Shown: one piece after another, positions 14,348 through 18,505 of the stretch
Numbering within the stretch: the stretch's first letter is position 1
Layout of the letters: each line of letters begins with the position of its first letter
Assembly: GCA_041665925.1 (NCBI GenBank)
Contig: JBAYHW010000001.1
Location: 11,282 to 75,281 of the forward strand
DNA: 64,000 nt
Source: Minisyncoccota bacterium
GTDB taxonomy: Bacteria > Patescibacteriota > Minisyncoccia > Phycocordibacterales > UBA9973
Direction: 5' to 3'
Notes under the pieces: generated by a model
Seen by the model: the letters and a program-made list of their open reading frames with translations, nothing else
What the model was told of the DNA's origin: nothing
Database searches by the model: none
Position numbers and translations under genes: made by a program

Positions 14348-14363
14348 ATTAATTTTATTTTTC

Positions 14364-14432
14364 TAATGTTTCGCCTTTTGTGATTTTTGAAGACCGTAGT
14401 AGGGCTAAAAAATTACAAAAGGCGAAACATTA
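14364..14432 (-). promoter_or_regulatory. perfect 18-bp inverted repeat (33-nt loop) in the rplN-rplX spacer
   Basis: TAATGTTTCGCCTTTTGT ... ACAAAAGGCGAAACATTA; rplX has no SD. Confidence 0.5.
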
Positions 14433-14439
14433 TTATACA

Positions 14440-16861: not shown

Positions 16862-17209
16862 TTATTTCTTCTTAGCGTCATCGGCTGTAGCTGTTGCAGA
16901 TTTTGCTTGTGCAATTTCAGCTTCTTTTTTCTTCATTTCTAATTCTTTCTGCATCTTTCCTCCGTGTTTCATAAATTTCTTTGTTGGTGAAAATTCTCCA
17001 AGTCTGTGGCCCACCATATCTTCGGTGACGAGTACTTCTATGTGAGTCTTGCCGTTATAAACGCCGAAAGTAAAACCAAGCATCTCAGGAGATATCATAC
17101 AAGCGCGCTTCCAGGTCTTGACCATTGGTGTCTCAAGCGGATTTTTGCCAGCTATTTTTTTAAGTAGCCTTTCGTCAATATTTAATCCTTTTTTGATTGA
17201 TCTTGTCAT
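16862..17209 (-). CDS. rpsS: 30S ribosomal protein S19 (Lys/Ala-rich C-terminal extension)
   Basis: 'GKTHIEVLVTEDMVGHRLGEFSPTKKF'. Confidence 0.9.
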   Translation of the reverse strand: MTRSIKKGLNIDERLLKKIAGKNPLETPMVKTWKRACMISPEMLGFTFGVYNGKTHIEVLVTEDMVGHRLGEFSPTKKFMKHGGKMQKELEMKKKEAEIAQAKSATATADDAKKK

Positions 17210-17238
17210 AAAAAATAGCTCCTAACGAGCTTGGTTTT

Positions 17239-17266
17239 ATAATAGCAAATTTGGAAAATAAGTCAA
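17239..17266 (-). promoter_or_regulatory. rpsS promoter: TTGACT-N16-TATTAT, then SD AGGAG 9 nt before the ATG
   Basis: near-consensus sigma70 hexamers directly downstream of a terminator. Confidence 0.55.
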
Positions 17267-17268
17267 AT

Positions 17269-17335
17269 AAAAAGAAACGGGCCTCGATGTTGTCTCGAGG
17301 CCCGGGGTGGGAGGAGTTCAGGACCGCGCGGTCCT
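17269..17335 (-). terminator. double GC hairpin plus U-tract (AGGACCGCGCGGTCCT; GGGCCTCGA-n7-TCGAGGCCC-GUUUCUUUUU) ending the GC-island transcript
   Basis: 9-bp perfect GC stem followed by a T-run on the minus strand. Confidence 0.6.
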
Positions 17336-17364
17336 CAACTCTATCCCGGATGGTGCGGGGGGTC

Positions 17365-17529
17365 CTAGCGGGTATCGGAGCTGGACGCGGTGGAGCAGGC
17401 CATGTTGGCCTTGATCCGAGAGATGGACCGAGCGAACGGTGTCGCCTGGAACTTGTCCCTCGCGTGGGCCTCCTTGGCCTTTCTCGCGTTCTGCTCTTTG
17501 ATGGTTTCCCGAGAGGAGTGGTGGTTCAT
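17365..17529 (-). CDS. GC-rich 54-codon ORF with SD 'GAAGGGGG' 5 nt upstream (MNHHSSRETIKEQNARKAKEAHARDKFQATPFARSISRIKANMACSTASSSDTR); may instead be a structured RNA
   Basis: read from sequence; below the ORF-track cutoff; flanked by a terminator; ~65% GC in a 35% GC genome. Confidence 0.3.
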   Translation of the reverse strand: MNHHSSRETIKEQNARKAKEAHARDKFQATPFARSISRIKANMACSTASSSDTR

Positions 17530-17626
17530 GAAACCCCCTTCTTTCGTTTAGATCCGATTACTTACAGATCCGCTAAAACTATGCCACTTTTGGAAAATAA
17601 AGCAATAGAGTATGGGGAAAACAAAA

Positions 17627-17644
17627 AGCCCCCCTGCGGGGACT
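17627..17644. terminator. bidirectional intrinsic terminator (AAAAGCCCCCC-TGC-GGGGACTTTTTT) 20 nt after the rplB stop
   Basis: GC hairpin flanked by an A-run and T-run. Confidence 0.6.
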
Positions 17645-17665
17645 TTTTTAATTTTATTTATTTCT

Positions 17666-18505
17666 CTATTTGTTTTTTCCGGTCTTTCTGCGAGAGACGA
17701 TGAAGACGTTTGAATATTTCTTTGGTCCGCGAGTCTTTCTTCCACCTGTAACTTTACCCCACATAGTCTTCGGCCTCTTGGTTCCGCGTCCTTGTCTGCC
17801 TTCACCTCCTCCGTATGGATGGTCTACTGGGTTCATCGCTGTTCCGCGGACAGTCGGACGGATTCCTTTCCAGCGTGAACGTCCGGCCTTACCATAATTT
17901 TCCAAATGATGTTCTTCGTTTGATACAGTGCCGACAGATGCCCAGCAGTTTTCATTTATTTTACGAACTTCAGTAGAAGGCATTTTAAGGTTGGTGTATC
18001 CGTCAGCATTAGCCACTACTTGAGCAAATATTCCAGCTGAGCGCCCAATCTTCGCTCCGCCCATAGGCTTGATTTCAACGTTATAAACAAACGTTCCCAC
18101 AGGAATATTCTTTAATGGTAGTCTGTTACCTGCTGTAAGTGGAGCCTTTTCTGAAACTACAAATGAGTCCCCCATTTTTATAGATTTAGGAATGACTACA
18201 TACCTCTTCTCTCCATCCTTATATACAGCAAGTCCGATAAATGCACTTCGGTTTGGATCATATTCCACGGATTTTATTTTTGCAGGAATATCTTTTTTAT
18301 TATATAAAAAGTCCACATCTCGGTAAAGCCGTTTGTGCCCGGAGCCTTTGTGGCGCATAGTGATACGCCCAGCACTGTTTCTGCCGACAGAACGTCTAAA
18401 GCCATGAGTCAGAGACTTGGTCGGCGTAGATGTCGTGATGACTCCCCTGTAGCTCACATTGGTCATCTGTCTTCGTGATTTACTTGTAGGTTTATATGTT
18501 TTCAT
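17666..18505 (-). CDS. rplB: 50S ribosomal protein L2
   Basis: L2 sequence. Confidence 0.9.
   Translation of the reverse strand: MKTYKPTSKSRRQMTNVSYRGVITTSTPTKSLTHGFRRSVGRNSAGRITMRHKGSGHKRLYRDVDFLYNKKDIPAKIKSVEYDPNRSAFIGLAVYKDGEKRYVVIPKSIKMGDSFVVSEKAPLTAGNRLPLKNIPVGTFVYNVEIKPMGGAKIGRSAGIFAQVVANADGYTNLKMPSTEVRKINENCWASVGTVSNEEHHLENYGKAGRSRWKGIRPTVRGTAMNPVDHPYGGGEGRQGRGTKRPKTMWGKVTGGRKTRGPKKYSNVFIVSRRKTGKNK

Follow-up and report, generated by a model that had tools for sequence, protein, structure and literature searches.

The S10 ribosomal protein operon of a Minisyncoccota bacterium carries, between rplB and rpsS, a GC-rich insert that is, on balance, probably an autonomous and expressed small-protein gene housed in a lineage-specific variable slot. 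The operon lies in the window, i.e., the entire 64,000-nt stretch of contig JBAYHW010000001.1 (GenBank assembly GCA_041665925.1) analyzed here, to which coordinates refer unless another locus is named. We grouped this uncultured, Nomurabacteria-type organism and its relatives as Paceibacteria, within the candidate phyla radiation (CPR); the NCBI records of its uS19 and uL2 proteins bear the label Candidatus Paceibacterota. The spacer between the two genes measures exactly 456 nt (17210..17665), as given in a first-pass annotation made from the sequence, and the insert proper, judging from its sequence signals, extends from ~17270 to 17605, about 335 nt. A promoter, a Shine-Dalgarno (SD) sequence, a 54-codon open reading frame (ORF), and an intrinsic terminator follow one another in this order on a single strand, and such signals are those of an autonomous transcription unit (Table 1). 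The first-pass annotation had described an independent cassette at this position: the order of its parts and its placement on the operon strand hold, but the cassette's own promoter had been overlooked.

This putative promoter sits directly behind the rplB terminator and aligns with a TTGC(A/T/C)TTATTTT...TG(T/G)TATAAT element found at the same position in relatives (loci L002, L004, L085, L092, L094, L096, L098, L105, L111, L112, and L116). Based on these alignments, it is native to the clade, orthologous to the cassette promoters of the relatives, and presumably active. Both the ORF with its strong SD and the double GC hairpin with a U-tract, already reported in the first pass, were recovered; hairpin A begins ~18 nt past the ORF stop codon, and hairpin B is followed by TTTCTTTTT. 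Transcription from the cassette promoter to the hairpin B terminator would yield an RNA of ~300 nt, and its translation would give a 54-residue, basic (isoelectric point, pI, 10.5) protein shaped as a helical hairpin. Separately, a 12-nt direct repeat, TTATTTTCCAAA, occurs at 17589-17600 and 17250-17261. Its interpretation as the target-site duplication of a miniature inverted-repeat transposable element (MITE) was rejected, since the two copies lie inside the two promoters, each of which has orthologues in relatives; no further copy of the island, as might mark a transposable element or MITE, was found in the window or in any fetched locus.

Table 1 Features of the rplB-rpsS junction in the window, and positions of cargo at the same junction in distant Paceibacteria. 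CDS, coding sequence; UTR, untranslated region; GRAVY, grand average of hydropathy.
Feature	Position	Strand	Description	Detected by
rplB (uL2) CDS	17666..18505	-	Upstream flank	Pfam Ribosomal_L2_N 5e-31, Ribosomal_L2_C 1.9e-50
rplB intrinsic terminator	17618..17649	-	A-run, hairpin TCCCC-GCA-GGGGG (17630-17642), U-run	Terminator scan
Putative cassette promoter	17578..17605	-	-35 TTGCTT (17600-17605), 16-nt spacer, extended -10 TGG-CATAGT (17578-17586)	
Predicted cassette 5' UTR	17530..17571	-	About 42 nt, with SD AAGGGGG (17534-17540) 4 nt before the ATG	
54-codon ORF	17365..17529	-	MNHHSSRETIKEQNARKAKEAHARDKFQATPFARSISRIKANMACSTASSSDTR; pI 10.5, GRAVY -1.12	ORF list
Hairpin A	17309..17347	-	39-nt imperfect palindrome GGGAUAGAGUUGAGGACCGC/GCGGUCCUGAACUCCUCCC, without U-run	Inverted repeat
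Hairpin B, intrinsic terminator	17266..17304	-	10 bp, 8 G-C pairs (17278-17304), plus UUUCUUUUUAUU	Terminator scan, inverted repeat, fold
rpsS promoter	17239..17266	-	TTGACT-N16-(TGc)TATTAT	Promoter scan, 10/12 matches plus TG extension
rpsS 5' leader hairpin	17210..17231	-	AGCUC-GUUAG-GAGCU (17217-17231) plus AUUUUUU	Fold, -7.2 kcal/mol
rpsS (uS19) CDS	16862..17209	-	Downstream flank	Pfam Ribosomal_S19 1.3e-30
Distant cargo locus	L003:2678-2911			
Distant cargo locus	L009:2504-2911			
Distant cargo locus	L011:2482-2880			
Distant cargo locus	L024:2089-2871	-		
Distant cargo locus	L036:2070-2915	-		

The base composition of the ORF carries a clear coding signal. GC content at codon positions 1, 2, and 3 is 0.44, 0.54, and 0.85, a periodicity reached by 0 of 100,000 permutations in any phase (p ~1e-5). 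Across 84 host ORFs, GC at third positions (GC3) averages 0.337 with a maximum of 0.49, and the highest value among 15,565 windows of 55 codons taken from host genes was 0.618. The sense frame prefers AAG, CGG, TCC, and GCC, as in GC-rich genes. Such periodicity implies that codon positions 1 and 2 resist GC pressure, and hence that the amino-acid sequence is or was constrained; from these sequence statistics, we read the sense ORF as a real coding sequence, now or very recently, with a codon usage foreign to the genome. The predicted product is basic and hydrophilic, its tryptic peptides including DKFQATPFAR, ETIKEQNAR, and ANMACSTASSSDTR, and AlphaFold2 modeled it from the single sequence as a helical hairpin (H10-28 and H31-46) with a predicted local distance difference test score (pLDDT) of 84.5. 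On the opposite strand, an ORF at 17390..17551(+) shares third positions with the sense frame; it starts with GTG, lacks an SD, is hydrophobic, and encodes Leu by TTG at five positions and Arg by CGA at three. Prodigal additionally predicted a 138-aa antisense ORF (17287-17703, plus strand; P0032 in an ENA-derived collection) that overlaps the 3' end of rplB. Because this longer frame shows no periodicity (GC1/2/3 of 0.59/0.50/0.49) and has no homologue, it is spurious, a product of GC-rich sequence; when it served as the query for further island copies, the only match was the ORF itself.

When the junction was compared across related genomes, the slot proved either empty or filled with analogous GC-rich cassettes. 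Loci were gathered via uS19 (80 loci), via members of the uS19 cluster, and via a metagenome scan with the rpsS promoter/leader motif (26 loci). The gap between rplB and rpsS ranges from 62 to 2759 nt in Paceibacteria, compared to 1-104 nt in 38 loci of other phyla, and several Paceibacteria loci have rplB more than 3 kb from rpsS. Genus-level loci with a complete gap include six empty sites, about seven with one cassette, six with two, and one with three. Overall, one to three cassettes were found in about 14 of the 24 genus-level relatives, a few of which hold ordinary genes instead. In each of these cassettes, a promoter and GGAGG precede an ATG-initiated ORF of 30-99 codons, which is followed by a GC hairpin and U-run; the cassettes form GC peaks of 55-72% within genomes of 35-47% GC. 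Across the 24 ORFs with an SD and an ATG used for statistics on the class, mean GC1/2/3 is 0.56/0.51/0.68, with GC3 the highest of the three in 16 (p = 9e-4). The median pI is 10.55, Lys and Arg make up 24% of residues, and the ratio of AAG to AAA codons (102:25) is opposite to that of host ribosomal protein genes (129:203).

Cassette interiors show no nucleotide similarity between loci, the similarity being confined to their flanks. However, these relatives are different species or genera whose ribosomal protein genes are 74-88% identical in nucleotides, and at such distances the missing similarity is not by itself proof of independent acquisition. Three pairs of cassette ORFs are homologous at the protein level and GC-rich in both species, namely L094_285/L096_87 (E = 4e-6), L091_79/L116_657 (E = 2e-4), and L111_82/L092. 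The two-cassette arrays of L096 and L105 (gaps of 719 and 807 nt) have terminator, promoter, and SD flanks that are 77-97% identical, whereas their ORF-plus-terminator interiors reach an identity of 0.461 vs. 0.464 for shuffled sequences. This pattern suggests replacement or very fast turnover of the interiors, a suggestion weakened by the four-fold degenerate sites of rpsS being only 55% identical between the two loci (75% in rplB).

Several further observations concern the slot beyond these arrays. Short metagenome contigs end 4-150 nt upstream of rpsS in L083, L084, L090, L093, L102, L103, and L113, and L082 (an empty 155-nt site) and L084 encode an identical uS19 yet differ upstream of tandem promoters. 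Both observations suggest a within-population polymorphism of the slot that breaks assemblies. In distant Paceibacteria, the same junction holds a HicA toxin with an adjacent 113-aa ORF, a prokaryotic diacylglycerol kinase, or histidine kinases (Table 1), and the slot is thus variable across the whole class. The gap of L115 contains a 236-aa ORF without known family, a relative of which, 31% identical (tblastn E = 2e-12), occupies the slot in the distant L014, indicating that some cargo is common to deep branches at this one position.

Comparison with relatives also separated the insert from the signals on either side of it. A hairpin and U-run comparable to the rplB terminator lie right behind rplB in L002-L006, L009, L082, L094, L096, L098, L105, and L111. 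At the other end, the final ~60 nt of the window spacer are 82-95% identical in relatives, empty sites included, with the layout TTGACT-N16-TATTAT, 7 nt, the hairpin AGCTC-GTTAG-GAGCT, and a U-run. Empty sites, in which the gap measures 112-155 nt (L005, L082, L100, L101, L108, and L114), contain the rplB terminator and the rpsS promoter and leader, and nothing else. Since both occur in relatives with such short spacers, neither the terminator of rplB nor the promoter of rpsS belongs to the island. The bidirectional terminator behind rplB (hairpin, T-run, and upstream A-run) and the TTGACT-N16-TATTAT promoter ahead of rpsS, which also has a TG extension, are therefore present as first annotated, but they are ancestral and lie outside the cassette to which they had been assigned. 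A restart of transcription ahead of rpsS is most likely, via this promoter. The AGGAG proposed as the rpsS SD instead falls within the leader hairpin (loop and 3' stem), which is too distant from the rpsS ATG in most relatives (16-27 nt, compared to 7 nt in the window genome); in the window leader, AGGAG may also act as an SD.

The rpsS promoter and leader hairpin form a module that is widespread in the class. Scanning upstream of rpsS (L002-L036 and L082-L116) for a promoter, a hairpin 5-9 nt past the -10 box, and a U-run recovered it from 50 of the 68 Paceibacteria loci and from none of the 39 loci of other phyla. Across these 50 loci, the stem is 4-8 bp long at a fixed 5-9 nt past the -10 box, and at least seven fully compensated variants were observed, including AAGCUC/GAGCUU, GCCUUU/AAAGGC, UCCGCC/GGCGGA, GACCC/GGGUU, ACGCCC/GGGCGU, AACGCC/GGCGUU, and CCCGC/GCGGG, as expected for the conserved hairpin of a ribosomal protein leader. 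The pattern AGCTC-N4-7-GAGCT occurs once in the window, in the rpsS leader, and the module matched no Rfam family. From these sequence features, the hairpin looks like a 5' stabilizer or attenuator of the rpsS-distal ribosomal protein genes. Given both the spread of the module across Paceibacteria and the empty sites, the rplB|rpsS split is an old feature of the class, and the slot would exist because the S10 operon was cut there into two transcription units.

This arrangement bears on the possibility that the ORF is a leader peptide whose translation attenuates read-through of the two hairpins into rpsS. Small ORF, two hairpins, and U-run upstream of an operon do reproduce the classical attenuator layout. 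However, the rpsS promoter lies downstream of the terminator and is independent of any cassette in empty-site relatives, hairpin A starts outside the footprint of a ribosome terminating at the ORF stop codon, folding the whole spacer revealed no alternative pairing that could serve as an antiterminator, and cassettes come in arrays of up to three. Attenuation of this kind is thus very improbable.

The 54-aa ORF is an orphan, with no homologue in ~15 billion proteins, Pfam, NCBIfam, PHROGs, Rfam, or viral contigs. Pfam, NCBIfam, and PHROGs gave no match at E ≤ 1, a word-index search of 5.8 billion protein clusters no match at all, and viral contigs nothing credible, while phage and plasmid nucleotide searches with the core returned only chance matches of 22-27 nt. 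No PDB entry was matched by a Foldseek search with the AlphaFold2 model. The single match from an exhaustive phmmer search of 1.84 billion representatives was a 1011-aa ankyrin-repeat protein (P0031, E = 5e-6), obtained through a short ARDK(F/Y)Q.TP motif that is repeated many times and contributes 17-25 bits per repeat. An origin as an ankyrin-repeat fragment was rejected, this match being an artefact of repeat summation or chance: Pfam Ank models remain unmatched at E ≤ 1, and no other ankyrin protein was matched. Similarly, the spacer is not a degraded fragment of a known gene, an origin that the first-pass annotation had named as contrary to its interpretation, since neither a credible homologue nor a match to the Ank models was found. 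Kinship with L105_84, which aligns end-to-end at 31% identity, was also rejected (shuffle p of 0.015, not significant over ~45 comparisons; hhalign probability 0.15%), so that no relation of the window ORF to any relative's cassette ORF could be demonstrated. The 76-aa cassette protein of L092 is likewise an orphan in the large collection. A full-text literature search returned no description of the rplB|rpsS split in CPR bacteria or of such cassettes.

The composition of the insert could reflect either its source or its position. GC content reaches 66.5% in the core (17279-17478) and 70% at 17299-17398, against a window mean of 38.4% (standard deviation of 5.2%, 200-nt windows), and no other part of the 64 kb reaches as high a GC content at window sizes of 100, 200, and 300 nt. 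The initial estimate of ~65% GC in a ~35% GC genome is therefore close for the core, but not for the entire spacer, which has 50%, and its background figure has to be raised from 35% to 38.4%. Together with a GC3 of 0.85 vs. a host mean of 0.337, this is the atypical composition expected of a horizontally acquired island, as had been proposed. A foreign gene or fragment captured recently from some GC-rich donor, which could be a mobile element, a host bacterium, or a Parcubacterium of high GC content, and retained as an un-ameliorated passenger in the gap between terminator and promoter, would fit this GC3 far above the host maximum, the restriction of the cassette to the window genome, the unrelated cargo found at the junction elsewhere in Paceibacteria (HicA toxin, diacylglycerol kinase, and histidine kinases), and the replacement-like interiors of L096 and L105, at shuffled identity inside 77-97% identical flanks. 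We nonetheless judge such a capture quite unlikely. No donor was found in the 1.84 billion representatives, the 5.8 billion clusters, or the phage, plasmid, and viral collections, where the sole match was repeat-inflated. The promoter is native to the clade, and neither mobility genes, terminal inverted repeats, nor a target-site duplication were found at the island. Moreover, small cassettes of this slot are nearly all GC-rich in at least 14 genomes, homologues included, which requires a persistent GC-favoring force and not a repeated coincidence. While the alien composition noted in the first pass is real, the maintenance of GC-rich cassettes in the slot across many species thus argues against a simple one-off recent transfer.

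Two origins can accordingly be envisaged for the GC-richness itself. The first, a very recent import from a GC-rich source, would explain both the GC3 of 0.85 and the orphan status of the ORF. The second is a persistent GC-favoring force acting at the slot, candidates being selection for the structure or stability of the RNA, and biased gene conversion at a hot spot of recombination between ultra-conserved flanks. We favor a persistent force, though not strongly, based on the lack of an identified donor, the native promoter, and the clade-wide distribution of GC-rich cassettes, including homologous ones across species. As a possible extension, offered tentatively, the junction may be a dedicated slot in which GC-rich mini-genes are continually born, replaced, and lost, each combining a strong native promoter and SD with a species-unique body kept GC-rich against the AT bias of the genome. 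Their products, small basic proteins specific to each lineage, would target either the host cell or the reduced ribosome of CPR bacteria, and the window ORF would be newborn or rapidly turning over.

GC-rich islands of AT-rich genomes are typically structured RNAs, and folding results bear on this alternative. Folded on the operon strand, the whole spacer has a z-score of -5.7 and pairs the cassette SD with CCACUCCUCU of codons 3-6. The 3' region (17266-17367) folds at -46.7 kcal/mol (z-score of -6.26), and the ORF region forms one long imperfect hairpin (z-score of -2.4, or -2.2 in our own shuffles). The same tendency extends to relatives, with cassette ORF regions averaging a z-score of -1.91 (48% below -2) compared to -0.06 for host gene segments, a systematic shift consistent with selection for a stable, structured mRNA. 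These folds, along with cassette protein sequences that are almost unconstrained across genomes, would also be compatible with a functional product in the form of a structured small RNA (~300 nt, non-coding or with a dual function), in which the ORF is incidental or secondary. This alternative appears unlikely: a 3-base periodicity would not be expected of a purely non-coding RNA, nearly every cassette has an SD and ATG at canonical spacing, and GC3 is the highest of the three positions in two-thirds of the cassette ORFs. Nor did any Rfam family match the island or the 20 related loci searched, whatever the threshold. At the gathering threshold, Rfam 15 identified only five tRNAs in the window, all outside the island, and a permissive search of 17100-17800 yielded at best 22 bits against a threshold of 51, with all E ≥ 0.56; the 20 related loci gave 0 matches. 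The strongly structured RNA suggested in the first pass is thus real in that the hairpins at the 3' end are very stable and folding of the ORF region beats its shuffles, but the periodicity marks the sequence as coding, now or until recently.

Taken together, these results point towards a small-protein gene whose RNA would itself be unusually stable, with an SD that could be masked by codons 3-6. We propose that the product is a fast-evolving, highly expressed small protein associated with nucleic acids or the ribosome. This role is suggested by the cassettes of relatives being small and basic, encoded by structured GC-rich mRNAs with a strong SD, and located amid ribosomal protein genes. Several points weigh against an expressed small-protein gene and its proposed role. 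The CATAGT and TTGCTT boxes are weaker than those of relatives and fall below the threshold of the consensus scan, so the cassette promoter could be decaying. By our own calculation, a 54-codon open frame occurs by chance in ~20% of sequences with 62% GC, and the length of the ORF alone hence proves nothing. AlphaFold2 confidence is weak evidence for a single short helical sequence, and the orphan status of the ORF leaves conservation, the ratio of nonsynonymous to synonymous substitution rates (dN/dS), and covariation without comparison sequences. Finally, a ribosomal or nucleic-acid role is a guess made by analogy with small basic ribosomal proteins.

Genes of the S10-spc cluster are encoded on the minus strand and follow the order tuf, rpsJ, rplC, rplD, rplW, rplB, rpsS, rplV, rpsC, and onward; all genes between 13.5 and 21.8 kb of the window encode ribosomal proteins or are tuf, and the remaining gaps of the rpsJ-rplE cluster measure 4-92 nt. 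As a further point against a gene in the spacer, NCBI annotates none between rplB and rpsS, the accessions of S19 and L2 being consecutive (the window uS19 and uL2 are identical to MFA6520016.1 and MFA6520017.1, respectively). An abrupt change in composition within a highly conserved operon of a metagenome-assembled genome could point to an assembly chimera or contamination, which the first-pass annotation had named as an outcome that would undo its interpretation. Here, however, a 73,387-bp ENA contig from an independent assembly matches the window at 100% identity along 571 nt that include the whole island. Its rpsS sits at ~28.25 kb, also on the same strand, such that holding the 64-kb window would require at least 75.4 kb; the window can therefore not be a sub-stretch of it, the two are separate records, and a chimera is very unlikely. 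The junctions of the insert also fall in functional, orthologous signals, and dozens of independent assemblies of relatives display the same architecture, leaving the probability of an artefact close to negligible.

Two other features of this cluster were noted. The C-terminus of uS19 (16862-16940, minus strand) carries an Ala/Lys-rich extension, KKEAEIAQAKSATATADDAKKK. This is the Parcubacteria-specific uS19 tail described previously (PMC9297842), in a study that, among the topics relevant to this junction, covers ribosomal protein lengths only. In the 92-nt rplN-rplX spacer (14348-14439, minus strand), two 17-nt arms, AATGTTTCGCCTTTTGT...ACAAAAGGCGAAACATT, form a perfect inverted repeat around a loop of ~34 nt, which may represent another ribosomal protein leader or processing structure; rplN-rplX spacers of ~86-90 nt are also found in L082 and L085.

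Few gene arrangements in bacteria are as conserved as the S10 operon, which Paceibacteria cut between rplB and rpsS with a terminator, a promoter, and a 5' hairpin. The gap so formed became a variable slot, which one genus-level clade fills with arrays of orphan, GC-rich genes for small basic proteins. Three features make these genes unusual, namely their place inside the S10 operon, a GC-richness that is alien to the genome but maintained across the clade, and over-structured mRNAs. If expressed, such mini-genes would be candidate ribosome-associated or host-interaction factors in organisms with reduced ribosomes, and would offer a tractable natural case of very fast gene turnover or birth beside essential genes. 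Standard annotation pipelines either miss them, as with the NCBI annotation of this spacer, or call a spurious antisense ORF such as the 138-aa one found here.

Among known systems, the S10 leader of E. coli, with its L4-mediated attenuation hairpin, can be likened to the rpsS leader and not to the island. Both place a hairpin and a U-run in the 5' leader of ribosomal protein genes, and the rpsS hairpin is kept by compensatory changes. Unlike the E. coli leader, however, it is located in the middle of the canonical operon, consists of only 4-8 bp starting 5-9 nt past the -10 box, is restricted to Paceibacteria, and lacks an Rfam match. The island itself shares with dual-function small RNAs and type I toxin mRNAs a short ORF in a stable RNA, a maskable SD, and its own promoter and terminator; unlike type I toxins, the window peptide is hydrophilic and basic and not a membrane peptide, and it matches no known family. 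A type I toxin-antitoxin pair built on the hydrophobic antisense ORF was also considered and rejected, as the island has no plus-strand promoter and this frame has no SD and odd codons. Hydrophobic antisense frames are expected opposite genes rich in Lys, Arg, and Glu.

With 30-100 residues, a high pI, a high content of Lys and Arg, and a location beside ribosomal protein genes, the slot proteins resemble bL36, bS21, bTHX, and bS22/Sra. They differ from this class in having no sequence or profile similarity to it, in diverging extremely fast, and in being absent from some relatives, and their codon preferences run counter to those of the genuine ribosomal protein genes of the host. Integron arrays likewise combine a fixed site with zero to three short cassettes of mostly orphan ORFs that differ between close relatives, but integron cassettes are usually promoterless, whereas each slot cassette carries its own promoter, SD, and intrinsic terminator. 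An integron was rejected here: no boundary repeat other than promoter pieces is shared within or between arrays, and the surrounding ribosomal protein cluster includes no integrase. In hairpin A, GTTGAGG and CCTGAAC occur in the wrong order for the R''/R' core sites of attC. Finally, as in chromosomal hot spots and islets, conserved genes (here rplB and rpsS) bracket a variable and often orphan content of none to several genes. The slot is set apart from these by its tiny size (0.1-2.7 kb), its position inside the S10 operon without integrase, tRNA, or repeat boundaries, and a genus-level cargo of GC-rich mini-genes, each equipped with its own promoter and terminator.

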